DNA of 53,481 bases, taken from positions 1 to 53,481 of the IMG/VR virus record IMGVR_UViG_3300026283_000082, one strand, 5' to 3'. Below the pieces are notes generated by a model. It searched no databases, was not told the DNA's origin, and saw nothing but the letters and a program-made list of their open reading frames with translations. The position numbers and the translations under genes were made by a program. Source of the stretch: a virus. Its lineage: Duplodnaviria; Caudoviricetes. This document shows, piece after piece, positions 1-53,481 of the stretch (position 1 is the stretch's first letter; each line of letters begins with the position of its first letter).

Positions 1-1101
1 TCAGGAAGCGTCTGGAGACGACGGAAAGACGTGGCCGTTCCAGCCGCCATCGCCTTCGTCGGCACGGCGGGGTGCCCCCGCATGCGCCGCATACGCCTCA
101 GGAACGGCATACGCCGAGTGCATCGGCGCCGCGTTGCTCCGCGACGGCAGCGTGCCCGGCGGCGGGTTGTCGGACGTCGTCAAGGCGCGAGGTGCCATCG
201 CAATCGACTCCAACGGGGCGGGCATAGCCGGCATCGGCAGCGGCGCGTCCGGCGGGGTGGCAGGAGGCGAAGTCGCTGCTGCCGCACGCACGAGCGGCAG
301 CGGCCCACCGGGCGCTTCGGGCGGCGTGTGGAGGTAGCGTTGGTTGTTGGCGAGCACCTCGCGGGCCAAGCTCATGTAGTTGCGCGTGCCCAGGCTGGCG
401 GCGTCGTAGAGCAGCACCGGCTTGCCGAAGCTCGGCGCTTCGGCAAGTCGCACGTTGCGCTGCACGATGGTGCGGAACACCTTGTCGCCAAAATACCGGC
501 GGACTTCCTCGGCCACCTGCGTGGCCAAACGCAGACGTGTATCGTACATCGTGAGCAGCACGCCCTCGATCTCCAAATCCGGGTTGAGGTGCTGCCGGAC
601 GATCTTGATCGTGTTGAGCAGTTGCCCGAGGCCTTCGAGCGCAAAGTACTCGGCCTGCACCGGAATCAGCACCGAGTCGGCGGCGGTGAGCGCGTTGAGC
701 GTGAGCAGCCCGAGGCTGGGCGGGCAGTCGATGACGATAAAGTCGTAGCGGCGGCGGGCCTGCGCGAGCGCGTTTTTGAGCGCCCGTTCGCGCTCGGCCA
801 CGTCGATCATCTCAATCTCCGCGCCCACGAGATTGATGTGCGACGGGATGAGGTCGAGAAACGGCATTCCGGTGGGAATGGCGGCCTCCTCGGCGGTGGC
901 TTCGCCGATGAGCACCTCGTAGGCGCTCGTCGTCACGGTGCGCGGCTCGATGCCCGTACCGCTGGTACCGTTGGCTTGCGGGTCGAAGTCGAGGAGCAGC
1001 GTCGGATGCTCCGTTGCGGCGAGGCTGGCCGCAAGGTTCACCGCCGACGTCGTTTTGCCGACGCCGCCCTTCTGATTCGCCACGGCGATCACTTTACCCA
1101 T
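1..1101 (-). CDS. parA: Host chromosome-partitioning ATPase ParA/Soj with a Pro/Ala-rich C-terminal extension
   Basis: Starts [18 protein letters not shown] (deviant Walker A), with Dx[23 protein letters not shown] and [12 protein letters not shown] motifs. ATG at 1101; the longer ORF start at 1395 is unlikely. Confidence 0.95.
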
Positions 1102-1372
1102 AGACACGGGGGGCCGCTTCGGCCCGGTACGCAAAGAGGCTGGGGGGACGGGTGGAATGTAGGGCTGCCCGCTCGCGTTCCGACCCCGTGGCCCGGACTT
1201 CACGGAAACGCGGGCCGCAGGCCGATCACAACGAAACGTCAACCGCCAACTTCGCACACTTCGCGTTGAAAACGGCGGACACACACAAAAGCGTCCCCTG
1301 ACCCCGATAATGCAGCGTGCATAGCCCCGAGGACGCCCAGTATTGGGCGATTGTTGCCACGAGCGGACAGTT

Positions 1373-1392
1373 GATCCGGCGACGATCCGGCG
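1373..1392. repeat. Direct repeat GATCCGGCG x2 with 11-bp period, possible integrase arm-type sites
   Basis: gatccggcg at 1373-1381 and 1384-1392, just downstream of the integrase stop. Confidence 0.35.
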
Positions 1393-1396
1393 CAAC

Positions 1397-2512
1397 TCAT
1401 ATGATGCCCGACAGGGCTGACTCTTCCCGGCTGAGGTCGCCGGAGGGAATGAAGTGGGAGTAGATGTTGAACGTCTCCCAAGACTTATGCCCCGTGTATT
1501 CCATCACCGTCCTCGGGGGCGTCCCGCTGGCGAGAAGGCGAGACACGAATGTGTGCCTGAGCGCGTGAAGCGAGAGCTCGGCGTCCATGCCTTCAGAGTC
1601 TACGATGTCGCTCACGAGATGCGTGACTGTTGAGGGGCTTATCGGACGCCCTCTGCCGCAGAATATGACCGTCTTTGCATCCGGGAATAGCAAACGCGCA
1701 TCCATTCTGCGAAGCACAAGTTCGCGGGTCGGCCCAAACAGCGGCACGGTTCGCTCCTCGTCGGTTTTCATGCCCCTGCCGTCTCGCGCTACGAACGAGA
1801 GCGTACCCGCCGAAAGGTTTACATCCTCCCACCGAAGGCCGATCATTTCGTACCGGCGGCCGCCGGTAAAAAGCCCGAGGCGAATAAAATCGGGAAGCCA
1901 CTGTCCATGACTCTGCTCCGCCCGCTCAATGAGGCGGACAATGGCCTCAGGACTGAATACCTTGGGTATCTTCTTGGGCACCTTGGGCTTTGCGGTCTTG
2001 GCGGCCAAGGCGTCTGTGTAGCCCGGAGGACAAGCTCCGACAAGCTCGCACCAGCGAAAGAAGGCCTTTGCCTGCGACAGGTAGACGCGGCGCGTGCCCG
2101 GCTTGTGATCGCCCGACCACACGTACTCGAAAAGGTCGGCCGGGGTTACGTCTGATACCCGCCTTCGGCGTCCGACAACGCCAATCATACGGCCAAGGCA
2201 GACTCTTTTGGACGAGAGCGTGGAGGCGGACAGTCCGGGGTCGTGGGCCATGTAGGCGCTGGCCGCCTCGCCGAGCGTCATCGTGCTCTCCTTGGAGGCC
2301 CAAGGATCAAGCACGCCCGCGTCTACGCGGTGCGCAATCTGCCTTGCCTCACGCACGGCCTCCTCTTCGCGGGGGCAAGAGAGCGAGATTTGCTTTCTCT
2401 TGCCCCCGCGAGTCACCTCCACGTAATACCCCCTGCCCGGCCGGAAGTAGAGCTTTACGCCCGGAACGCCGAGGTCAGGAAGGCTTCTTGAGTTTGTTCT
2501 TCTTGTGGGCAT
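1397..2512 (-). CDS. int: Tyrosine recombinase/integrase
   Basis: Catalytic set: TGGRRYE (R), MKT (K), HALRH (HxxR), TGH, IYSH (Y). N-terminal arm-binding-like region. Start placed at the ATG of MPTRR (2512). Confidence 0.93.
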
Positions 2513-2816
2513 TGCTGGTGGTTCGCGCGGCTTTGTACCGCTCAAGTTCAGGGCGTGGTATGCGCAAAAGTGCGCCTTCTCGCGTGGCGGCAATGAGTCC
2601 TGATTCGATTCGGCGGCGCAGCGTGCGCGTGCTTATGCCAAGGCTGCTTGCGGCCGCGTCAAGCGAAAGGTCGCCTTCGACGCCGCCGTCCCGGCCCGCG
2701 AGCGACACAAGACGCTCAAGACGCAGGGCGAGAGCCTCAAGCCGGTTGATGGTTTCGTCGAGGGCCTGTGGCCCACTTGGGACGCCCTTCGCGTCCCTGT
2801 CTGCTGGGAATGGCAT
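2475..2816 (-). CDS. Excisionase-like HTH protein
   Basis: LSLDAAASSLGISTRTLRRRIESGLIAA..GALLRIPRPELERY fits a MerR/HTH_17 pattern; overlaps the integrase start; preceded by the leader motif. Confidence 0.85.
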   Translation of the reverse strand: MPFPADRDAKGVPSGPQALDETINRLEALALRLERLVSLAGRDGGVEGDLSLDAAASSLGISTRTLRRRIESGLIAATREGALLRIPRPELERYKAARTTSNAHKKNKLKKPS

Positions 2817-12950: not shown

Positions 12951-13028
12951 TGGCGCTCCCGGCAGGAATCGAACCTGCAACCGCCTGCTTAGAAGGCAGA
13001 CGCTCTATCCGGCTTGAGCTACGGGAGC
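12951..13028 (-). tRNA. tRNA-Arg(UCU)
   Basis: Reverse complement: GCTCCCG TA GCTC-AAGCCGGATA-GAGC G TCTGC-CTTCTAA-GCAGG CGGTT GCAGG-TTCGATT-CCTGC CGGGAGC G CCA. Full cloverleaf, anticodon TCT, encoded CCA. Confidence 0.97.
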
Positions 13029-15631: not shown

Positions 15632-15666
15632 CTTCTGGTGGGTATTGGCCCCGGTAAGGGCCGTGC

Positions 15667-19705: not shown

Positions 19706-21184
19706 CTACCAGCTGCCCGCAAAGGGCCACCCGGCGGCGGCTTCGTCCTCGTCCTCGTCCTCGAACTCCACTCCGCCATCGTCCTTTTCTTGGCGGCTTG
19801 TAGCGTCTGCGATGATGCGCTCAAGATCGTAGAGAAGGTCGTTTTCGACCATCAGTTTTACTACGGCCTCGTCGTCTGCGGCGAGGGCGGTGTAGATCGT
19901 CTCGATGACGGCGTCTGCGGTGTGGCGTCCGAGGACGACGCCTGCCCTGCTCGAAGCGCCATGGCGGCCCGTGCTGGCGCGAAGAGCCCACTCTCCGTTC
20001 ACCTCGTCGTACGTCCAGTCGTCAACGCCGTGCGAGTAGGTACTGCCGTAGCCGCGCCCGCCAAAATAGCCGCGCGGGTCTTCGTAGCGGTCGTAGCTGC
20101 CGTATCCAAGGCCGTACCCGCGTGTGTTTCCGTGGCGTCGGGGGTCGCGCTCTGCCGGAAGGCTCTGCCAGTTCACCTGCACGGCCGCCTCGGCTACGGC
20201 CACGAGATACTCTACGTCTTGCGTCTCGCCGCTGGTGTGCTGGCCGGTGTAGCCGACCGACAGGTTGGTACATTCCGAGATGATGTTGGCAAACGAGTTG
20301 CTGTCGGTGTATACGCCCCCATTGTCGAGGCGCCACTTCGACGGAATGCCGCCGCGCCCGTCCATAGCCTTCTCAAGCTCAAGAGCAAGATCAATGGCGA
20401 ACGCCTCGGAGCATGTCTGACCCGACATCTGGTCGGTGATGACAGAGCCGAATCGCGCCCGGTCAAACGACACGCATCGGTCAGGCACGATGTCGCCTTT
20501 GGACTTGCGAATCGCCATGTCCACGCTCGCAGCCTCGGAGCCCCTGCATCCGACCTCCTCCTGCGAGAAGAAGCCGTAGGTGCCAACCACGCCTGCGCGG
20601 ATCATGTGGAGCATGATGACGACGCCTGCGCGGCAGTCGGCCCCGAGAATGCCCTTTAGGTCAGAGCCAAGCAGAGGACGCTGCGAGGCCGGGTCGCGGA
20701 AGAGTTCAAGACGCTGCTTGCGGCTTCGCCCGGTCTCGACGGTGTCAAGGTGCGAGGTGAAGAGCGTGCGAGCAGCCTCTTTCTTCTTGCCAACAACAAC
20801 CCAAAGGTTGCCGTGCTTGTCCTCTTTGATACTACTCGTCGTGGCTGTGCGCAGGCACCTGCGAATGCGGCGGATGACGAGGGCCTCGCTCTCGCCGGGG
20901 TCTTCGCAGAAGGCCACAAACTCGTGGACGATGCGGGGCGCGGCGCGCAGGTAGCTGGAGAGCGACATCATGTTGCGGGGCTTGGCGACAGGGGGCCGCC
21001 ATTGGTGTTTGGCGGGCGGCATCGGCTCAAGCGCGTTTATCCTTGTTACTGCCGTGGAGGCCGCAGCGGCAGGCGTGTTCGTAGTGGAAGCGGCCGCCGC
21101 TTTGGTTGCACGCCCTGCGCCTTCCGGCGCGCCGGTGCCCCCGTTGGTCGTCGCAGGGGTGGCTTTTTTGATTCTCATTTTCAT
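19706..21184 (-). CDS. M20/M28-clan zinc peptidase
   Basis: FTSHLDTV, LGADCRAG, QEEVGCRGS, SFDR, YTDS, NLSVGYTGQHT..E (H, D, EE, D, H ligand set). Confidence 0.85.
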   Translation of the reverse strand: MKMRIKKATPATTNGGTGAPEGAGRATKAAAASTTNTPAAAASTAVTRINALEPMPPAKHQWRPPVAKPRNMMSLSSYLRAAPRIVHEFVAFCEDPGESEALVIRRIRRCLRTATTSSIKEDKHGNLWVVVGKKKEAARTLFTSHLDTVETGRSRKQRLELFRDPASQRPLLGSDLKGILGADCRAGVVIMLHMIRAGVVGTYGFFSQEEVGCRGSEAASVDMAIRKSKGDIVPDRCVSFDRARFGSVITDQMSGQTCSEAFAIDLALELEKAMDGRGGIPSKWRLDNGGVYTDSNSFANIISECTNLSVGYTGQHTSGETQDVEYLVAVAEAAVQVNWQSLPAERDPRRHGNTRGYGLGYGSYDRYEDPRGYFGGRGYGSTYSHGVDDWTYDEVNGEWALRASTGRHGASSRAGVVLGRHTADAVIETIYTALAADDEAVVKLMVENDLLYDLERIIADATSRQEKDDGGVEFEDEDEDEAAAGWPFAGSW

Positions 21185-21186
21185 CT

Positions 21187-22266
21187 TTACCACGCTATTT
21201 CGGTGTATTGTTCGGAGCCTTCGCGTTCTCGCTGCGAGCCCAACTTGCGGTAGTCATACAAATCGCCGAAGCATATCCGAGACGGCGTTCCGTGAATGTG
21301 CTCCATCACCCACATGGTCTCGTTTTGATGCCGGGGGTAAAGCGTGCACTCGGTTATGCGAGAGGGCGGCGCGTCGCGGTTGCTTTTGTAGTGCTCGCAG
21401 TCTTTGGAGTACGCGTACTTGAACGTATCCATGTACGGGCTGCCTCCGTTGGGAACGAACGCTGCGCAGACGAACCAGTCGTCCGGGCAGTTCGGGTAGA
21501 GCCGCTCAAGGCCCTGATCGCGCGACCACCGGAGCATCATGCGCTCGATCCACGACCCGCCATCGTCGGCGCTGCTCATGCGGCAGTAGATGCGGTCGAT
21601 GCCGCGACGGTGCCCAAGAGCGTGCGTCCATACGATGGCGCGCGCCATGATAGCGCCGTCCTCGTCACGCCGCATCACAACGAGCCGCGCGTCGGTGCCC
21701 TCGTTGTCGAGCATTCGCCCGGAGTACGGCCGGTCATCGCCGGTCATGCAGGACGAGAGGCCCTTGATCTCCTCGTCCACATGGATTTTAGGGATGCTCT
21801 CCAGAACGTCCTGCGCCTGCCCCTTGGGCACGAGCCCGATGGAGACCGAGAATGGCGGCTGCGGGTTCAGGCGCTCGGCCGCCGCCGTGCCAAGGCGCTC
21901 GGCGGCCATGCTCACGACAGCCTTGTCGTACCCCATCTCGGAGAGGAGCTTGTGGTGGCGGACGAGAAACTTGCCAATGCCGTAGGCGCGCCACGACCGC
22001 TGCCCCTTTTTGGGGCCCACGGGTACGGTGTAGGGTACGCAGACCTTGTTGTCGCGGGCGCGAATGATGATGTCCCAAGCGGGGCACTTCTCGGGAAGCA
22101 CGCCGTCGCCGACGAAGCTGAGGAGGTCGCTGACTTTCTGCCTGATCTCCCGCTCCTCGTTTGTCCACTCGTCGTTTCCAGACGGGGAGAACAGGCGGGG
22201 GTGCTGCGCGGCTTCGTAGGCCACTTCGGGCAGGCGGGCGGAGTCTTCGATTTCGGATGGGGTCAT
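21187..22266 (-). CDS. Conserved phage protein with SCM / ARAIVW / DRIY / PYMDTF motifs, function unknown
   Basis: Motifs visible in translation; start MTPSEIE at 22266 carries the leader motif. Confidence 0.7.
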   Translation of the reverse strand: MTPSEIEDSARLPEVAYEAAQHPRLFSPSGNDEWTNEEREIRQKVSDLLSFVGDGVLPEKCPAWDIIIRARDNKVCVPYTVPVGPKKGQRSWRAYGIGKFLVRHHKLLSEMGYDKAVVSMAAERLGTAAAERLNPQPPFSVSIGLVPKGQAQDVLESIPKIHVDEEIKGLSSCMTGDDRPYSGRMLDNEGTDARLVVMRRDEDGAIMARAIVWTHALGHRRGIDRIYCRMSSADDGGSWIERMMLRWSRDQGLERLYPNCPDDWFVCAAFVPNGGSPYMDTFKYAYSKDCEHYKSNRDAPPSRITECTLYPRHQNETMWVMEHIHGTPSRICFGDLYDYRKLGSQREREGSEQYTEIAW

Positions 22267-22394
22267 GGCTCTTCTGGTGGTTTTGGCCCCGCTCCTCTCG
22301 GTCAAGAGGAGGGTGGTGGTGGGGCGGGGCTAAGGCGAACCCTTAGCCTTTGGTGGAACATCGGTCCCCGTGGTGACGGGGGGTGTGATGACGC

Positions 22395-22550
22395 TCACGG
22401 CGTGGTGTAGGAGGCTCCCCACACGCGCCCGTACTCGACGCGGTAGTGCGGCTGCCCCCTTGCGGGGCAGTAGACGACCGAGACCGGGCGGTGCTGGAGC
22501 GCGGCGAGTCGATTGGCGGCGCTCACGGCGAAGCGAAACGAGTTGAACAT
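22395..22550 (-). CDS. 51-aa protein (not in ORF track)
   Basis: MFNSFRFAVSAANRLAALQHRPVSVVYCPARGQPHYRVEYGRVWGASYTTP, preceded by the full leader motif. Confidence 0.6.
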   Translation of the reverse strand: MFNSFRFAVSAANRLAALQHRPVSVVYCPARGQPHYRVEYGRVWGASYTTP

Positions 22551-22699
22551 GGCTCTTCTGAGTAAAGCCCGTTGTGGCGGGCGGTGGTAGAAGCAGGAAG
22601 CGGCGGGCGACCCCCGGCGTGGGGACTCGGCCTATGTGGCCTCGCTTGGCGCAGAGGCCCGACAGGGCCGATCCGGGGGCGGCCCGCCACAGCGTTTGG

Positions 22700-23008
22700 T
22701 TATGATGCGGGTGCGTACGTCCATCCCCCACCCGCGTGGGCGAGCACAAGTCCCTGCGAGAGCGCAGCGTCGAACGTGGTCACGATAACCACAGCCTCGC
22801 GGCGATCCCCGCGCACAACGCCTCCGAAGCCCGGCACGAGGCATCTCCGGGCTTCGGAGGCGTTGACATCCGAATCAAACTCCCAGTCAATGGCCTTAGC
22901 CACGCCCCTAAGCCGGGTGTGCGCCTCGGACTTGTAGTGGTAGCCGTCTTCAAAGAACCCCACCACATACAAACGAGATGGTCGGCGTCGCTGGATAAGA
23001 GTCTTCAT
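22700..23008 (-). CDS. Hypothetical protein
   Basis: ATG 23008 is ATGA-coupled to the upstream gene. Confidence 0.6.
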   Translation of the reverse strand: MKTLIQRRRPSRLYVVGFFEDGYHYKSEAHTRLRGVAKAIDWEFDSDVNASEARRCLVPGFGGVVRGDRREAVVIVTTFDAALSQGLVLAHAGGGWTYAPAS

Positions 23009-23355
23009 AGAAACCTCCACTCATAAGCGGATTCTCTCCTGCGCACCTCGACGGTGGCGCGGTGAGAGGATCGTGAGTATTGAAAAAGGTGGTCAGCATC
23101 CATCTCCTTGGCCCAGACAGCGCCCCGAAGGTTGACGCAGACGATGTAGAGGCTGTCGCCGTCTATCATCTTCTCCGCTTCATCTCTCGCGTCTACGAGG
23201 AGGCGTTGGGGGTAGTCCATATGGACGCCCCGGTATCTTAGGTGGAAATGGATGGCAGAGACGAGCGCGCCCGTCCACCGCTCTTGCTTGTATTCGTTCA
23301 CGAGCGCGGCTGGGGCGACGCTCGGGTGATGTGTGTCAGGCGCGAGAGCATGCAT
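23005..23355 (-). CDS. Hypothetical protein
   Basis: 116-aa ORF with promoter and full leader motif. Confidence 0.65.
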   Translation of the reverse strand: MHALAPDTHHPSVAPAALVNEYKQERWTGALVSAIHFHLRYRGVHMDYPQRLLVDARDEAEKMIDGDSLYIVCVNLRGAVWAKEMDADHLFQYSRSSHRATVEVRRRESAYEWRFL

Positions 23356-23394
23356 CTTCTGGTGGTTTTGGCCTGCGGTGACAGGCGACTGTAA

Positions 23395-23424
23395 AGGATA
23401 GCACCGCCCTTACAAGATTCGCAA
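23395..23424 (-). promoter_or_regulatory. Extended -10 early promoter overlapped by an inverted repeat
   Basis: Minus strand TTGCGA-N18-TATCCT with TGn before the -10; ccgccctt/aagggcgg inverted repeat (23404-23430) spans it. Confidence 0.5.
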
Positions 23425-23429
23425 GGGCG

Positions 23430-24566
23430 GCACATATGTGAGTATGTATTTTATTTCGGCGGACCCCGTGGCATGGTCGTGGAGACTGGGTGAGAGCGGG
23501 CGCTATGCGCCTACGTGGTGGGCCTCGGCCCCGGTAGCGGGGAGCGTATTGCTCCGGCGCGGCGGGGCCCGGCCTGTGCGTGGTGGTGGACGCAAGGGTC
23601 GTGGGTGATGTGGAGCACGATGCTCCGGGTGAGTGTTGCCGCGTTTGGCACGCAAAGCCGCACACTGTGGCCGTGCGTGAGCCTCCCCGCTACGTCAAAG
23701 CAGCGGCACGCACGCACGGCACCAAAGCCGCGCGCGCTCTTGGGGAGGTAGGGCGTGTTTTTCCATTATCACGCCCCCAAAGGACGACGGGACGGCGGGC
23801 AGGTCTACGCGCATCTAAGCGTAGGGCCACAAACCGTCCACCGGGCGCACGTTCACTCTGCGCCCGGCTCTCAACCGGCGATCCTTACCGCGCACCCTGT
23901 CGGGAATAAGCGTACACCCTCAATCTTTCGGATAGGCCGAAAGATGGGCATATGCGCTGCACCCCGATGCTGCGGCTTCGTAGTGCGGCTCTTACGATCA
24001 AGCCGCTTTCCCCACACGCGCTACGCCGCCGAATACGGCCCACACGCGGGAAGCGCCGGTATCTACGACTACCGGCTTCCTCTGAATAACGCACGCCAAA
24101 GCCACCCCCACGCAGGACAAGATGCGCGGGCTATGTTGGATATGCTACCCCTGCTCGGCAGGCTGCAAGCCCCGTGAAGGGCCATTGGGAGCGGCAAACG
24201 GGAGCCTACGCGCTACCCAGTAGGATGCGCCGTCTACGGCCCTGAAACGCTTTGACTTGCGTTCCCGCTTGCTACTTACACGACATATACGATGTATAGC
24301 GTGAAGTATGTACGCTCCACCTGCTCCGCGCTGTTCGGCGCGGCTTAGGTGGCGTTCTCAGTATGTTGTGACACGGTGCCCTATCGGCACCGGCTACCCG
24401 GCATCCCTTGCCCTAAGACTTGGGATCGTATGCGGATCGTGTCACGTCGGACGATCCGCCGGGGGCACGGGACTTGGCCCGTCGCACCGTGCGCCTATCG
24501 GCGCGGTTGGGTGCGGTTGGGGATCGGTGCGGAATCGAACCGCACGGGGCGAACCTGCCCGATCCC
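23430..24566 (-). ncRNA. Candidate large structured non-coding RNA (about 1.1 kb)
   Basis: No convincing ORF; near-continuous helices and multibranch junctions; several stems extend through G-U pairs only on the minus strand. Ends approximate. Confidence 0.6.
24519..24566 (-). ncRNA. Minimal tRNA-like element (acceptor stem plus T arm, no anticodon arm)
   Basis: Reverse complement: GGGATCGG-GCAGGTTCGCCCCG-TGCGG-TTCGATT-CCGCA-CCGATCCC-C. Confidence 0.65.
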
Positions 24567-24574
24567 GGCGCGGC

Positions 24575-25231
24575 TTACGCGCCCGTTTCGGCTTGCGCGT
24601 TCGCGGCTTGCGCGTTCGTGTGAGCCTTTTCGGCTTTCGCGTGCGCCTCCTCCATAAAAGAAGCAATGGCCGGAGGTGCCGCGCCGAACCGCTTCAACTC
24701 TCCCACAAGCCACCGCTCTGTTTCCACCGTGCGCTTGACGGCGTTGTTGTGGCGCGTCAAATCCTCACCGTTCAGCCGCTCCACGTCCACGGTGGACAAC
24801 GCGAAACCGCGCCGGACGGACGAAGCAAGCCGCGCCCAAAGCTTGGCCGTGTGAGCGGCTTGCACGTCAAGCGTGGCGTTCGCATAGTCAACCGCGCCCG
24901 TGCGTTCTGCAATCGTGACCTTGCCGGACGGCGTGTAGAACACACCAAACGTGCCCGCTTCCCGTGCCGCGTATCCGAGACGATCCGCCGTTACGCGGGC
25001 GCTAAGACACGCGGTGAGGTGACGCGCCACACGGCGGCTCTTGGCGTTGCAAGCACCTTGCAGGATAGACGCAAGGCGTGTGCGGATTTCCGCTTGCGCT
25101 TGCGTGTCGCCGTGGCGCGGTTGGGCGGCTTTCTTGAAGCCGTCGAATCCTTCCGCGTCCTTCCACGCTTGCGCGTTGTCGTTTGCACGCGCCACGGCGC
25201 GTCCTTTGGTCGTCGTTTGTGCCTTTGACAT
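24575..25231 (-). CDS. Hypothetical Ala-rich early protein
   Basis: 218-aa ORF with CCAGAAG ATG leader. Confidence 0.7.
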   Translation of the reverse strand: MSKAQTTTKGRAVARANDNAQAWKDAEGFDGFKKAAQPRHGDTQAQAEIRTRLASILQGACNAKSRRVARHLTACLSARVTADRLGYAAREAGTFGVFYTPSGKVTIAERTGAVDYANATLDVQAAHTAKLWARLASSVRRGFALSTVDVERLNGEDLTRHNNAVKRTVETERWLVGELKRFGAAPPAIASFMEEAHAKAEKAHTNAQAANAQAETGA

Positions 25232-25312
25232 CTTCTGGTGTGCGCGTTACAGGACGCTTCACGCGCTTACGTCCATTGGTTGAGTAGGTGCGCCCAAGCG
25301 GGCGCGTGGATT

Positions 25313-25492
25313 TCAGCTGGTGTATTCCTCCATTGCATCCTCCACGCTTGCGTGTAGCGCACGGGGAATCCAAGCGCCAAGCACCGCGCACGTTGCAGCT
25401 TCCCAAACTGAGAAACTGCAAGCAACGTACACGATTGTGAGCGTGAAAGCGAGGTAGGGCAGAGCGTGGAGAAGGTGGAGAGCGTTGCGCAT
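25313..25492 (-). CDS. Small membrane protein, first gene of the leftward arm
   Basis: MRNALHLLHALPYLAFTLTIVYVACSFSVW... is hydrophobic; CAAGAAG ATG leader. Confidence 0.55.
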   Translation of the reverse strand: MRNALHLLHALPYLAFTLTIVYVACSFSVWEAATCAVLGAWIPRALHASVEDAMEEYTS

Positions 25493-25733
25493 CTTCTTGT
25501 ATTGGTTAGGCGGCTGGCTGGCCGCGCCGTTCGGTTGACGACTGAATAATACGCACGCTGAAAAGCGCCACAAGATCGAATCGTACATTAGAATCCGTAT
25601 GTTTTAGTGGCGATTTTGGGCTGTTTTGGGCTAATAAAACACGCAGGCAGGGCGGGGGGCTGTCGTTACAGCCACCCTCAGACACCGCTTTCTGATACTA
25701 CTGAAATCACTCTAACACGATTTCGCTTCTTCT

Positions 25734-25766
25734 TTTGTGGGTTATTTTCGCGCCTATTCGTACCTT
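25734..25766 (+). promoter_or_regulatory. Putative late promoter (terminase operon)
   Basis: TTTGTGG-N20-TACCTT, same spacing as the copies at 31436 and 52069. Confidence 0.55.
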
Positions 25767-25810
25767 TACCCGCTCGTCCGCTCACCTGCGGGCCTTTACG
25801 ACACAAGAAG

Positions 25811-26662
25811 ATGCTTACACCTCGCAGAAACGCGGCCAATCGGGGCAAAGACGCAACAGGCGGCCCGCGAGATGTGCTGCTCTCGGACGACCTGACAGAG
25901 GAGCAGGCCAGCGGGCTCATACCAGACGTTCCGGTGCTCGAAGACGTGCTTTCGGCGCTGGACGAGTCTGACCCCGACTACGACGACAAGCTGTTTGAGG
26001 CGCTAAAGTCGTATCACGCAGCGCGTAATCGCCTCGGCATTCGCAGCTCGAAGCACTCGGGCATCGGCACGGAGTCGTTTCTCCAGATGATGATGCTCTA
26101 CTTCGACGGGTGTACGTTCTCGGAGATCGCGGACTTGATGGGCGCTACGCTTTCGGGCGTGTCTCGCCAGTCCGACCGGATGCGGATTTCGGTTGACGGC
26201 ATACCTTTCACATGGCAGCAGATCAAGAAGATCGCCGATCCCAAGCGCGCGCTTGCCGCCGTGTCACGTCAGAGGCACGGGGGGCCGGTTTTCAACTACG
26301 ACGAGTGGGCCGAGAAAGACCGCGAGCGAGCGGCCGAGCGCATCGAGAAGGCGCGCAAGGCTATCGTGGAAAACCTTGACGACATGGACGACAAAGGGCG
26401 TTTCGTTGTCCCGCGCAGCGTGGCCGACCTTGCGGCGCTGGAGAAGACGGCGCTGTTGATTCGGGGCGAGGCCACCGAGATACGCGAGCAGCGCCGCACG
26501 GACGCCACGTTCTTGTTTCAGGTCGTCAAGCTCGAAGTTGAGAGCGCCCTTGGCCGGACTTCGGAGGTGAGCAGCCGAATCCTCAAGGGCATCGAGCGGC
26601 GCGTAGAGGCCTACGAGGCCACAGACGGCGACGAGAAAGTGGCGGGGCAGCTTTTGCGGTGA
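25811..26662 (+). CDS. Putative terminase small subunit (HTH)
   Basis: Directly upstream of TerL; GCTFSEIADLMGATLSGVSR HTH; start 25811 set by the leader motif. Confidence 0.65.
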   Translation: MLTPRRNAANRGKDATGGPRDVLLSDDLTEEQASGLIPDVPVLEDVLSALDESDPDYDDKLFEALKSYHAARNRLGIRSSKHSGIGTESFLQMMMLYFDGCTFSEIADLMGATLSGVSRQSDRMRISVDGIPFTWQQIKKIADPKRALAAVSRQRHGGPVFNYDEWAEKDRERAAERIEKARKAIVENLDDMDDKGRFVVPRSVADLAALEKTALLIRGEATEIREQRRTDATFLFQVVKLEVESALGRTSEVSSRILKGIERRVEAYEATDGDEKVAGQLLR

Positions 26663-26754
26663 CTGTCACGCCCCGGTGCCCATGGCGCATCCAAGGCGCG
26701 CAGCACTCTCCGCTATACGAACGAAAACGGCGGACTCTACAACCAGAAGACGAC

Positions 26755-28623
26755 ATGGGATTCTTTTCAGACGCCGCCCGAGACGCATTCTCGGACAACC
26801 GGCCCGACTACATCGACCCTTGGTCGGTCTTTGGCTCGCGCTACGACGACCCGCTCGGGCAGGGCGCGCCGCTTTGGCAGCGTTGTGCGTGGCTTGGCTA
26901 CCCCTACACCAACCCCGCGCAGGGCAACACCGTGCTCGGCGCTGTAACGGCCACGACGCCATCGGTCGTCATGGCCGCCATCGGAGGCAAAGGTAGCGGC
27001 AAGACGCTCTTTGGGGCGCTCCGCGCCGCGCACCTGATCCAGACGTATCCGGGCGGGCAGGGCTTCGTCGTTGCCAACTCCTACGGTCAGGCGTTTGGCT
27101 CGGCAGCGGCCAAGCTGGTGTACATGGCAAACGCTCTCGGCCTTCGGTATGAGTATTACACGCAGAAGACCATCAACGGCCTTCAATACAACTCGGTCTA
27201 CTACTTCCCCGACTACGACCACATCGTAGCCGTGCTGTCGTTCGACAACATCTCGCTCATCGAGGGATCGGAGTGGGACTGGATGTGGTGCGAGGAGATT
27301 CAGGATTGCTTGGAGCGAGACGTGAACGTGGCGGCCTCGCGCGTGCGGCGCGGCGTTGGAGACCACTCGATGTATTTCGCAGGCATGCCGGACGACGGGC
27401 AGCACTGGATGTACCGCTGGCTCGAAGAGCAGACCATACTGGCCGGGCCGGGCCGGGGCGAGCCCGTGCCGCTCTACGAGCCACCGCTCACCGAAAACCT
27501 CAGCAACAACCCCGAGGGGTACATGGAGGGGCTTCGTCTGCGCAACCGGAGCGTAGACATTGAACGCTACGTCTCGGGCGCTCGCATCTCGCTCGGCACA
27601 GCCCGCTGCCTGCCGTCGTTCTCGATTGACCTGCACCAGCGAAGCGAAACCGCCCTACGGCTTTCCGCCTACGACCCGTCGCTGCCCATCGGCATCTCCC
27701 TCGACTTCAACGTCAACCCGATGTGCGCGACCGTCCGTCAGGTCAAGCCGCTCGACCTCTTTGACCCCGATGGTCGCTACCGGACGACCAAGATGGTAGC
27801 CGCGCAGGTTGCCGAGTACGAGATTTTTGGGGCCACCACCGACGCCATGTGCGACGCGCTACTGGAAGACTTTGGGCGGATGGGGCGCATTGCCGGGCCA
27901 TCGGGGCACGTCGCAGGGGGGTTTGTCGTGGGCGACGCCACCGGCAGTCGCCGGGACACCCGATCCCCCGGCCTGACCGACTGGACGATCATTCGCGACC
28001 GCCTTTCTGCCCTGTCGGGGCTGCTCATTCGGCCCGGATGCGTGCTCTCGCGCCGCCCCTCGTCCGAATCGCGCGGGCGCAAGCTCGACACAGACCGCTA
28101 CTCCAACCCCCCCGTGCGCGACCGCGTGATCGCGCTGGAGCAGGCGCTCGTAGACAAAGACGGAGACATCCGGGTCACGTGGCTTCCGCACTCGGCCTTC
28201 GCCTCCGGCGGCTCGGCCCGGTCGTGCTCGTCTGCACTTTGGACAGCGGACGGCCGCATTGACGACCGGGCCGACAAAAGCTCGGATAAGGCAGCAGCAC
28301 GCACGCACTTCTTCGACGAAGAAGGCTACTACTTCTACTTCGCCCGCCACGACGGCCGCAGGATCGTCGGGCTCTTTGACGCCGACGAGGCGGACGCCCC
28401 TGCCCCCCGCCGCGCGCGCCGGGCCGACGTTCGCACGTCCGAGGCCATGCTCCGCTCGTCCTACGATGCCCCGGGCGCGCCCACAGACGCTGGCGCGCCC
28501 GGACGGGCCGCCGTCTCGGTCATGGGCGTAGCTGCGTCGCGGCCGGGCGCTGGAGCGCCGTTTGAAGCACCGCCTCTGCGCGGCGCTGCCCCAAAAGCTG
28601 CCCCGCCAAACATCGGGTTCTGA
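26755..28623 (+). CDS. terL: Terminase large subunit
   Basis: Walker A GGKGSGKT, Walker B WMWCEE, nuclease motifs LDFNVNPM, GDATG, HFFD; start 26755 (CCAGAAGAcgac ATG). Confidence 0.9.
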   Translation: MGFFSDAARDAFSDNRPDYIDPWSVFGSRYDDPLGQGAPLWQRCAWLGYPYTNPAQGNTVLGAVTATTPSVVMAAIGGKGSGKTLFGALRAAHLIQTYPGGQGFVVANSYGQAFGSAAAKLVYMANALGLRYEYYTQKTINGLQYNSVYYFPDYDHIVAVLSFDNISLIEGSEWDWMWCEEIQDCLERDVNVAASRVRRGVGDHSMYFAGMPDDGQHWMYRWLEEQTILAGPGRGEPVPLYEPPLTENLSNNPEGYMEGLRLRNRSVDIERYVSGARISLGTARCLPSFSIDLHQRSETALRLSAYDPSLPIGISLDFNVNPMCATVRQVKPLDLFDPDGRYRTTKMVAAQVAEYEIFGATTDAMCDALLEDFGRMGRIAGPSGHVAGGFVVGDATGSRRDTRSPGLTDWTIIRDRLSALSGLLIRPGCVLSRRPSSESRGRKLDTDRYSNPPVRDRVIALEQALVDKDGDIRVTWLPHSAFASGGSARSCSSALWTADGRIDDRADKSSDKAAARTHFFDEEGYYFYFARHDGRRIVGLFDADEADAPAPRRARRADVRTSEAMLRSSYDAPGAPTDAGAPGRAAVSVMGVAASRPGAGAPFEAPPLRGAAPKAAPPNIGF

Positions 28624-37208: not shown

Positions 37209-37314
37209 CACGCTGGGGCCGAGGCCTCGCCGCGCGGTAGTGGCGTCCCGCCGCGCCCGTGCTTACCTTCCTCTCACCGCCCTGCTAACCGGCAGCGCCT
37301 CTTTCCACCAGAAG

Positions 37315-42184: not shown

Positions 42185-42210
42185 TAGCCGCGCCGCCTCG
42201 CCACCAGAAG

Positions 42211-52141: not shown

Positions 52142-52777
52142 ATGCCAAAGCCTATTGCATGGGCCCCGACAGAGGCGCAGCTACTTGCCGCCTATGCCAC
52201 CCAGAAGTACCCTCTGTTTGGAGGGAGCGCCGCGAGGCCGCGACCCTACGACATCAACCTGTTTGGTATTCGGAAAGAGACGAACGCCAAGCCCGGCACC
52301 TACGACGACGTGCTTGGCTACACGCTTCGTCTCGACAACGGGCGGCGTATCACGCGCTTCTTTCCGGGCACAACCGATCCCGGCCTCCCGGAACTGCTGA
52401 AGCCGACCAACAAGTCAGGCGTGGCGGTTGTCAAGCCGGGGCATTATCCGGGCCTGTGGGAGCTGGGTCTCCACAAGAGGAAGACTCCGGCGCTTGTGCA
52501 GGTAGCCCCCATCGTTGTCTACCGCGACAACAACAAGGACGGAAAGGCCGACACGAAGGGCATGAAGGAACAGCGGGGGCTGTTTGGTATCAACATGCAC
52601 CCCGAGTCGGTCTACCGAGAGGAGAACGTGATCGGTCTTTGGAGTGCGGGATGTCAAGTGCCTTACCACAACGCCGACATGGACGAGCTTCTTCGCGTCT
52701 GCCGAGAGCAGGTTCGACGTGGCTGGGGTAGGCGTTTTTCGTACACCCTATTCACCGAAAGCGAGGTCATTCAATGA
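52142..52777 (+). CDS. Putative endolysin, L,D-transpeptidase (YkuD)-like Cys enzyme
   Basis: TTDPG, VYRDNNKDG, GINMH-x14-SAGCQV (H-x14-S-x-G-C); lysis-region position; start 52142 set by the leader motif. Confidence 0.65.
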   Translation: MPKPIAWAPTEAQLLAAYATQKYPLFGGSAARPRPYDINLFGIRKETNAKPGTYDDVLGYTLRLDNGRRITRFFPGTTDPGLPELLKPTNKSGVAVVKPGHYPGLWELGLHKRKTPALVQVAPIVVYRDNNKDGKADTKGMKEQRGLFGINMHPESVYREENVIGLWSAGCQVPYHNADMDELLRVCREQVRRGWGRRFSYTLFTESEVIQ

Positions 52778-53481
52778 ATCCCGATTCGCTTGCCTACGCC
52801 GACAGTGTGTTGCTGGCCGCTCACCGAGCGGCGGCGTCGCAGCGGCTCGCCCTCGCCCTCCTTGTGCTGACCGTGCTGGCCGCGCTCGCACTCGTTTACT
52901 ACCGTCAGAGCAGGCAGATTGCAAGGGCGTCCATGACCGACGCCGAGCGCCTTGCCCTCGAAGCCATCGCCCGAAGCCCCGTGGTGCTTTGGACGGCAGA
53001 CCGAGAGGGCAACACCGAGAGGATTCGCCTGAGCGTGGGAGGCGGCCTTGCGGCGCTTGGCATCAAGCCGGGCGAGCTTGTGGGTACGTCTCTGGAGGAC
53101 TTTCACGCGGCTGATCCTAATGCCGAGGCGCTGAAAATAGCGCGACGGGTGATGGACACCGGGCACGAAGAGACCGCCGTGACCACTTATACGGTGCCCG
53201 CAACCGGAGAGACCCGTCACTACCTCACGGCCTTCGTGCCCACAACGTCCGGCAAGGTGGTAGGGCTTGCCGCAACCGTGATGGACGTGACCACTCTCGT
53301 GGATGAGGCCGAGAGTCGCAGGGTGGAGACGGTTACGCTTCGTCGCAGGCTTGACCGCCTTGACACCCGCGCTCGGGCTGCCGAACAAGAGGCCAAGGCA
53401 CTCCGATCCGGGGAAAAAGCTCGCCAGCGTGTAGGCACCCTGCTTGAGCCGAAAGACCTTGCACCCACCGATGCCGAATGA
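52774..53481 (+). CDS. Membrane-anchored PAS-domain protein with C-terminal coiled coil
   Basis: TM LALALLVLTVLAALALVYY; PAS-type PVVLWTADREG..LSVGGGLAALGIKPGELVGTSL...VVGLAATVMDVT; coiled coil; ATGA-coupled to the endolysin candidate. Confidence 0.75.
   Translation: MNPDSLAYADSVLLAAHRAAASQRLALALLVLTVLAALALVYYRQSRQIARASMTDAERLALEAIARSPVVLWTADREGNTERIRLSVGGGLAALGIKPGELVGTSLEDFHAADPNAEALKIARRVMDTGHEETAVTTYTVPATGETRHYLTAFVPTTSGKVVGLAATVMDVTTLVDEAESRRVETVTLRRRLDRLDTRARAAEQEAKALRSGEKARQRVGTLLEPKDLAPTDAE

Follow-up and report, generated by a model that had tools for sequence, protein, structure and literature searches.

A hairpin-rich non-coding gap in the early region of a tailed prophage is a candidate for a large structured RNA

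We found that a gap in the leftward early region of a prophage shows no coding signal, contains stable hairpins and, in the one natural relative available for comparison, has changed in a pair-preserving way in three of those hairpins. The reading we prefer, to which we give roughly even chances, is that the gap specifies a structured minus-strand RNA of at least about 450 nt, carried in the leftward early transcript of a temperate phage with a Rhodothermales-like host. It is possible that the gap makes a single ornate RNA of 1.1 kb. A possibly new large phage ncRNA had been proposed at this site in an earlier note on the same DNA; the proposal gains from the lack of coding, the lack of an Rfam family, the tRNA-like start and the pairing kept by the hairpins in 24374-24459, but the strand it assumed is not settled by folding.

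The window (the whole stretch of DNA that was analyzed, 53,481 bases with a G+C content of about 63%) is an IMG/VR provirus record, of which the prophage itself makes up roughly 51 kb. A ParA-like gene and a tyrosine integrase gene lie at its left end and a PAS-domain gene at its right end (Table 1), and the prophage boundaries are likely to be in 1-2593 and 52774-53481; no long direct repeat that could represent attL/attR was found in the window at a minimum length of 18 nt. Between the window ends is a complete-looking tailed-phage genome, with integrase, portal, terminase and capsid genes. The early genes, which include a helicase, an AAA_24 ATPase, Gp157, a phosphoesterase and others, are on the minus strand and extend to 25231. 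Beyond a divergent region, plus-strand genes code for the terminase large subunit, a ClpP/S49 protease, the major capsid protein and very long tail proteins, with a Mu-type portal gene on the minus strand among these structural genes. Because the ParA-like protein has up to 83% identity to Rhodothermales MAG proteins, the host probably belongs to the order Rhodothermales. Metagenome runs of wastewater and activated sludge, produced in several studies, contain near-identical DNA; none of the 18 runs listed is an RNA run.

The gap (23356-24574) sits between two minus-strand genes, one coding for a protein of 218 aa upstream and the other for a protein of 116 aa downstream. A 10-nt leader, CCACCAGAAG, is found at 20 sites in the window at no more than one mismatch, compared to 3.0 expected. 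It precedes the ATG of many genes in both arms at a distance of only 0-5 nt, is not a Shine-Dalgarno sequence, and is an unusual phage-wide start-codon context. The leader brackets the gap, standing before the ATG of each flanking gene, and has no site inside it. Three copies of a 22-nt repeat unit at 24583-24646 encode the Ala/Gln-rich C-terminus of the 218-aa protein, a tail with many indels between this phage and its relative.

The earlier note described the gap as the largest one without a credible gene in a tightly packed genome, and our results agree: the largest interval left uncovered by a codon-usage gene finder is 23302-24574 (1273 nt), and the next largest in the whole window is 427 nt. 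The G+C frame plot is flat over 23800-24500, and the codon positions are sharply separated in the neighboring genes. By codon-usage log-odds trained on long genes, each of the 11 gap ORFs has a non-coding score (-0.09 to -0.51); the score was positive in 8 of 8 held-out small genes and 3 of 3 flanking genes. No Pfam or PHROG family was found in the four largest gap ORFs. Recoding of stop codons (TGA as W or TAG as Q) opens no frame that spans the gap. The ORF at 23755-24177, which had been named as a possible refutation of a non-coding RNA, shows no coding signal, having a non-coding score and no relatives among 5.8 billion proteins except its own copy. We regard the non-coding status of the gap as solid. 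That it holds at least one small or unusual protein gene missed by these methods is very improbable. ORFs of 39-140 aa do exist there, and third-position G+C rises mildly in one phase over 23460-23760, but besides their non-coding scores these ORFs lack a Pfam/PHROG match and the leader motif. In addition, the relative discussed below has a 1-nt insertion at 24154, within the ORF without relatives, and a 74-to-78-nt replacement within the ORF at 24349-24657.

Two other sequence features were seen close to the gap. A second stretch of low coding signal, 22267-22700 (about 430 nt), lies between a 359-aa gene and the gene at 22700-23020; its minus-strand z values go down to -2.9, and the sole ORF in it that scores as coding has 51 aa (22395-22550). 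Inside the gene at 22700-23020 there is a 52-nt imperfect palindrome (22816-22865, 85% self-complementary), which has the strongest local folding z nearby (-5.1 on the plus strand, -3.9 on the minus strand).

The gap matches none of the known RNA families that we searched for. At gathering thresholds, the only Rfam match in the whole window is a phage-borne tRNA-Arg(TCT) at 12951-13028(-), within a 0.7-kb region of little coding signal. When 23200-24800 was searched with the 4227 covariance models of Rfam 15 (E <= 10, permissive filters) no family was matched; the four hits in the gap at E <= 10 were at noise level (12.5-18.3 bits, E 2.6-5), far below gathering scores. This search covered GOLLD, ROOL, OLE, HEARO and introns, the comparison that the earlier note had recommended, and its statement that no signature of a group I/II intron, RNase P or tmRNA could be recognized is matched by the Rfam models. 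The GOLLD model (RF01998) gave no hit in 23200-24800 at the gathering score or at E <= 10, with no sign of its conserved 3' domain, and the ROOL model (RF03087) likewise gave none at either level. With respect to the location typical of GOLLD, in a phage or prophage near tRNA genes, the candidate is in a prophage and its neighbor is only a tRNA-like minihelix, the real tRNA (Arg-TCT) being 10 kb away. ARAGORN found no full tRNA cloverleaf in the gap at default thresholds. We rejected a decayed tRNA array, for which relaxed ARAGORN searches yielded only poor cloverleaves on both strands, and a tmRNA, which ARAGORN reported (as a "permuted tmRNA") only at 90% thresholds and with a tag that is the C-terminus of the 218-aa gene, and which we judged to be an artefact.

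Table 1. Coordinates of the candidate region, its predicted elements and neighboring features in the window.
Feature	Position	Strand	Remarks
Whole candidate ncRNA region	23396-24566	-	tRNA-like element to end of closing hairpin; non-coding, no Rfam hit, 46 helices
tRNA-like acceptor/T-arm minihelix, 47 nt	24520-24566	-	fold -25.8 kcal/mol, z -2.1
First CCGAUAGG hairpin, inner stem GCGCC/GGCGC, loop GAUA	24483-24515	-	-18.7 kcal/mol, z -3.9, probability 0.98-1.0; D15
9-bp hairpin	24432-24459	-	helix 24432-24440/24451-24459
Two-tier hairpin	24403-24426	-	5-bp outer stem, AA/AA internal loop, 3-bp inner stem
Second CCGAUAGG hairpin, 7 bp, loop GAUAG	24374-24392	-	z -4.05
Sequence-conserved core	24226-24356	-	three hairpin modules, 24317-24352, 24273-24308 and 24244-24265; helix probabilities 0.94-1.0
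Possible domain closed by an 11-bp long-range helix	24166-24476	-	helix 24466-24476/24166-24176, probability 0.79
9-bp hairpin	23923-23945	-	minus-strand loop CCUAU (23932-23936); z -3.95
10-bp hairpin	23840-23868	-	I24; probability 0.96
15-bp closing hairpin	23401-23433	-	four G-U pairs on minus strand; terminator-like site
Double compensatory change, C-G to U-A	24376/24390	-	plus-strand letters 24376 G>A, 24390 C>T
Double compensatory change, A-U to G-C	24404/24425	-	plus-strand letters 24404 T>C, 24425 A>G
Double compensatory change, G-U to C-G	24411/24418	-	plus-strand letters 24411 C>G, 24418 A>C
ParA-like gene	1-1395		left end of window
Tyrosine integrase gene	1397-2593		left end, next to ParA-like gene
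Downstream gene, 116 aa	23005-23355	-	no family; coding score +0.13
Upstream gene, 218 aa	24575-25231	-	no family; first gene of leftward arm; coding score +0.21
Divergent region	25232-25606		between leftward early arm and plus-strand genes
PAS-domain gene			right end of window; 52774-53481 is the likely right prophage boundary region
CCACCAGAAG before ATG of 116-aa gene	23356-23365	-	
CCACCAGAAG before ATG of 218-aa gene	25232-25241	-	
CCACCAGAAG, further minus-strand examples	15632-15641, 22271-22280	-	
CCACCAGAAG, plus-strand examples	37305-37314, 42201-42210	+	

The candidate region starts, as the earlier note had it, with a tRNA-like element located 8 nt past the stop codon of the 218-aa gene. 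This minihelix has an acceptor stem of 6-8 bp and, on its T arm, the canonical 7-nt loop UUCGAUU; a 4-bp hairpin takes the place of the D and anticodon arms, and an encoded CCA is absent. One of the four noise-level Rfam hits, and an informative one, is the weak match of this element to tRNA-Sec (17 bits, E 3.9, with the D and anticodon arms deleted in the alignment); ARAGORN reports the element at relaxed thresholds only. We considered and rejected an origin from an att site: the integrase gene and the host flanks lie at the two ends of the window, no direct repeat matches the element, and of 285 Rhodothermales genomes only 2 contain its 3' half when up to 2 mismatches are allowed. In the relative, 24496-24569 (74 nt, including the minihelix) is swapped for 78 unrelated letters, so the tRNA-like element is not essential in that form.

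At the other end, 45 nt upstream of the next start codon, is a hairpin (23401-23433) with a fold energy of -24.9 kcal/mol and z of -5.7; none of 200 shuffled sequences was as stable. It is terminator-like and passes a simple terminator scan, but its tail (UAUCCUUUAC) is U-poor and forms no proper U tract. No promoter-like sites were found in the gap or after the closing hairpin. TAnnTTTG, the Bacteroidetes-type promoter motif, occurs at 7 sites in the window compared to 5.7 expected, and at none in the gap.

Folding of the whole gap with a partition function places 52% of the bases on the minus strand, and 53% on the plus strand, in pairs with a probability of at least 0.6. The fold energies are -576.5 kcal/mol (minus) and -568.5 kcal/mol (plus), with 23 and 20 G-U pairs respectively. 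In 23396-24566 there are 46 helices of at least 4 bp with a pair probability of at least 0.6, and the number is similar on both strands. The earlier description of the gap as pairing almost throughout is therefore too strong, since about half of the bases are in confident pairs, and because the two strands fold about equally well the strand is not settled by thermodynamics alone. G-U pairs on the minus strand, which had been cited as an indication of direction, are indeed present–for example, four of them in 23401-23433–but their totals are similar on both strands.

Across 16 windows of 150 nt, local z averaged about -1.8 for the minus strand and -1.0 for the plus strand; z values of -3 to -5, as low as or lower than in the gap, occur in some nearby coding windows. 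The named hairpins have z values of -1.9 to -5.7. The z-score check suggested by the earlier note thus came out in favor of individual hairpins, which beat shuffles, but the excess over the whole gap is only moderate. Among pieces of 1140 nt, the gap has a minus strand (-543.6 kcal/mol) that is stabler than that of each of the 15 other left-arm pieces (mean about -477), and its plus strand (-545.9 kcal/mol) is within the plus-strand range of left-arm pieces. We found no significant internal repeats or modular duplication in the gap.

Most of the helices named in the earlier note exist as described: 23670-23679/23711-23720 (10 bp), 23841-23849/23859-23867, 23923-23931/23937-23945, 24374-24380/24386-24392 and 24432-24440/24451-24459 are all present, as are the two related hairpins sharing CCTATCGGC (family D15). 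The first of these helices competes with an 11-bp alternative (23727-23737/23710-23720). The helix 24194-24203/24263-24272 belongs to the full-length minimum-energy fold, but its probability is below 0.6 in the partition function. Evidence for the long-range domain at 24166-24476 is weak, because by our own estimate an 11-bp match in 1.2 kb is near chance. As read from the sequence, the CCUAU loop (23932-23936) complements the AUAGG found in both GAUAG(G) hairpins, and we speculate that this could be a kissing contact, either within or between molecules.

We compared contigs from four runs to 20500-27500, and the one natural relative available for the gap is in run X10. A 689-nt X10 contig aligns to 24111-24495 with 30 mismatches and 3 gaps in 385 nt (about 92% identity), and past the replacement it matches 24570-24748 with many indels; the comparison thus starts at 24111 and covers 385 of about 1170 nt, with 23400-24110 outside it. 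A second X10 contig aligns to part of the upstream gene (24965-25143) with 22 mismatches in 179 nt. The gap is therefore less diverged than the adjoining coding sequence, at 7.8% (30/385) versus 12.3% (22/179). Further left, an X10 contig joins 22692 to 23339 and skips 646 nt holding the genes at 22700-23020 and 23005-23355, and in the relative the two non-coding stretches (22267-22700 and the gap) may be adjacent.

We scored the substitutions against the minimum-energy fold of the minus strand, for whose prediction only the window sequence was used. Among the 27 of the 30 substitutions that are listed, three pairs are changed on both sides and kept (Table 1), six changes are one-sided with the pair kept, five break a pair, and 10 are in unpaired positions. 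Three compensatory pairs compare to about 0.3 expected by chance. The probability of observing at least three was 0.0016 when substitutions were placed freely, 0.0023 when they were placed within blocks so that the local substitution density was kept, and 0.026 when positions were fixed and the new bases were random. Sliding the 3' partner by 1-3 columns left only 0-1 compensatory pairs and 6-12 broken ones.

Support for structure is concentrated in three adjacent hairpins (24374-24392, 24403-24426 and 24432-24459), which lie in the most diverged stretch of the alignment. In 24374-24392, the change 24375 G>A gives a U-G pair on the minus strand only, and 24373 A>C would allow an additional pair, to 24393. 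In 24403-24426, one inner pair is broken by 24419 C>G, and two double changes keep or repair pairs. In 24432-24459, 24440 T>C replaces an A-U pair of the minus strand by G-U; in a plus-strand helix the result would be a C-A mismatch. The only substitution in the helix 24466-24476/24166-24176 is 24176 G>A, which keeps a U-G pair on the minus strand. There are 14 substitutions in 68 nt at 24373-24440, compared to two listed (at 24291 and 24300) in the 131 nt of 24226-24356. A variable part that keeps its stems, beside a part conserved in sequence, is the pattern expected of an RNA under constraint. About 90 nt have support for structural constraint, which is plausible over about 450 nt. Considering helices found on both strands, three events favor the minus strand (24375, 24440 and the reference state of 24411/24418) and one, 24300, which is among the five broken pairs, favors the plus strand. 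The minus-strand reading rests mainly on the orientation of the genes, with the strand-informative substitutions dividing 3 to 1.

We searched for further relatives. BLASTN against 50,697 phage records gave no match. Scans of IMG/VR with the 218-aa protein, a 372-aa protein and a 20-mer of the conserved core, of JGI metagenome contigs with the 218-aa protein, and of GTDB contigs with the 359-aa protein found none. The terL gene hit 68 loci in IMG/VR, all with at most about 36% identity over long segments, and 80 loci in JGI contigs, all with at most 34% identity. One relative of the 218-aa protein is known to us, P0003 (81% identity), which is encoded on 6 contigs of up to 16.9 kb, and the patterns used for IMG/VR and JGI included peptides conserved between the two proteins, so relatives are absent from the IMG/VR and JGI contigs and not merely missed. 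Among 285 Rhodothermales genomes, DNA searches with BLAST found only G+C-rich hits of 30-40 nt to the gap (in 4 of the 285), and none of the 285 had either of the flanking proteins. A single-sequence covariance model of the core (24240-24395) had a best E-value of 0.385 in 151 Rhodothermales genomes, and among 51 sources it found only the window itself. The candidate element is thus so far an orphan in the collections searched, and appears to be rare.

Several other explanations of the gap must be weighed. It could be a long structured leader or spacer with several independent cis-acting elements. These might be hairpins for attenuation or antitermination and sites of RNA processing, and they would control the share of transcription that continues beyond the first early gene into the remaining left arm, comparable to lambda nut/tL1 or HK022 put. 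The gap does lie just past the first leftward gene with 23 kb of further early genes beyond, as in those phages, and it ends in a strong hairpin close before the next start codon with no promoter-like site after it; moreover, substitution support is limited to local hairpins, and the long-range helices are thermodynamic predictions only. We nevertheless consider this explanation unlikely, as known antitermination RNAs are 70-150 nt long and the gap, at 1.2 kb, is more than 10 times longer, has no sequence or Rfam similarity to them and matches no Rfam cis-regulatory family, and the 131-nt core that is nearly without substitutions suggests constraint on sequence beyond simple stems.

Equally, the gap might be non-functional DNA, either the remains of lost genes or a recombination scar in a mosaic prophage, with hairpins of the sort that are typical at 64% G+C. 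The similar folding of the two strands with only about half of the bases confidently paired, the moderate z values that coding windows match, the orphan sequence, and the mosaic swaps in the relative (646 nt skipped at 22692-23339 and 74 nt replaced at 24496-24569) would all suit such an origin, which we judge improbable in view of the lower divergence of the gap than of the adjacent gene, the three compensatory double changes where 0.3 are expected, and the tight packing of the rest of the prophage, where the next gap is 427 nt. It is hard to credit that the hairpins act instead in DNA, as a replication origin, packaging site or recombination site. Compensatory changes would preserve DNA hairpins as well as RNA ones, and A+T content is higher in two patches of the gap (23434-23460 and 24280-24315), but the gap has no iterons and no significant direct repeats, the replication genes are 7-16 kb away, the terminase genes are beyond the divergent region, and several helices need G-U pairs on one strand.

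If the gap does produce a structured minus-strand RNA, transcription would start in the divergent region and run through the 218-aa gene into the gap. RNase P is known to accept acceptor/T-arm minihelices, and on this ground we propose that RNase P and tRNA 3'-end enzymes would cut the minihelix, splitting the transcript into the mRNA and a downstream RNA no longer than about 1.1 kb. The MALAT1-mascRNA junction is a tRNA-like processing signal that is cut by RNase P. The phage element resembles such signals in its acceptor stem stacked on a T arm, its canonical 7-nt T loop and its position at the junction of an mRNA and a candidate ncRNA; it differs in having no CCA and no anticodon arm and in being missing from the X10 relative. 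The freed RNA would then fold into a chain of hairpin modules, with its 3' end protected by the hairpin at 23401-23433, which would probably also reduce read-through into the early genes that follow. Contacts between modules or between molecules could be made by the complementary loops (GAUAG twice, CCUAU once).

By analogy with GOLLD, ROOL and other large phage RNAs beside tRNAs, the role of the RNA would most likely be that of an RNA-only scaffold or decoy. One report describes GOLLD as a large phage or prophage ncRNA of unknown function that is often beside or contains tRNAs, and ROOL as an ornate RNA encoded by phages and prophages near tRNA islands, which assembles via RNA-RNA contacts (PMC12286853). 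The candidate is similar to GOLLD in its prophage location, its size near 1 kb and the tRNA-like element at one end, but it has no match to the GOLLD model, is in another host lineage and neighbors a truncated minihelix rather than a tRNA. Its complementary loops could in principle make RNA-RNA contacts as in ROOL, but there is no match to the ROOL model and multimerization of the candidate is pure speculation. A more ambitious version of our reading is that 23396-24566 is one processed RNA of about 1.1 kb, freed at the minihelix and self-associating through the GAUAG/CCUAU loops, and that it represents a new large ornate class–the counterpart in Rhodothermales phages of GOLLD and ROOL, to which its sequence would be unrelated. 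We put this forward tentatively and think it rather doubtful.

As it stands, the case is a lead and not a discovery, built on one relative. Very few large structured RNAs of bacteria or phages are known (GOLLD, ROOL, OLE and a small number of others), and what they do is still open. The putative RNA described here occupies a definite position within an early operon, next to a candidate tRNA-like processing signal. If real, it would be a further unrelated large RNA from a different host phylum, one in which the contribution of such RNAs to phages, and the use of tRNA-like parts with them, could be studied independently.
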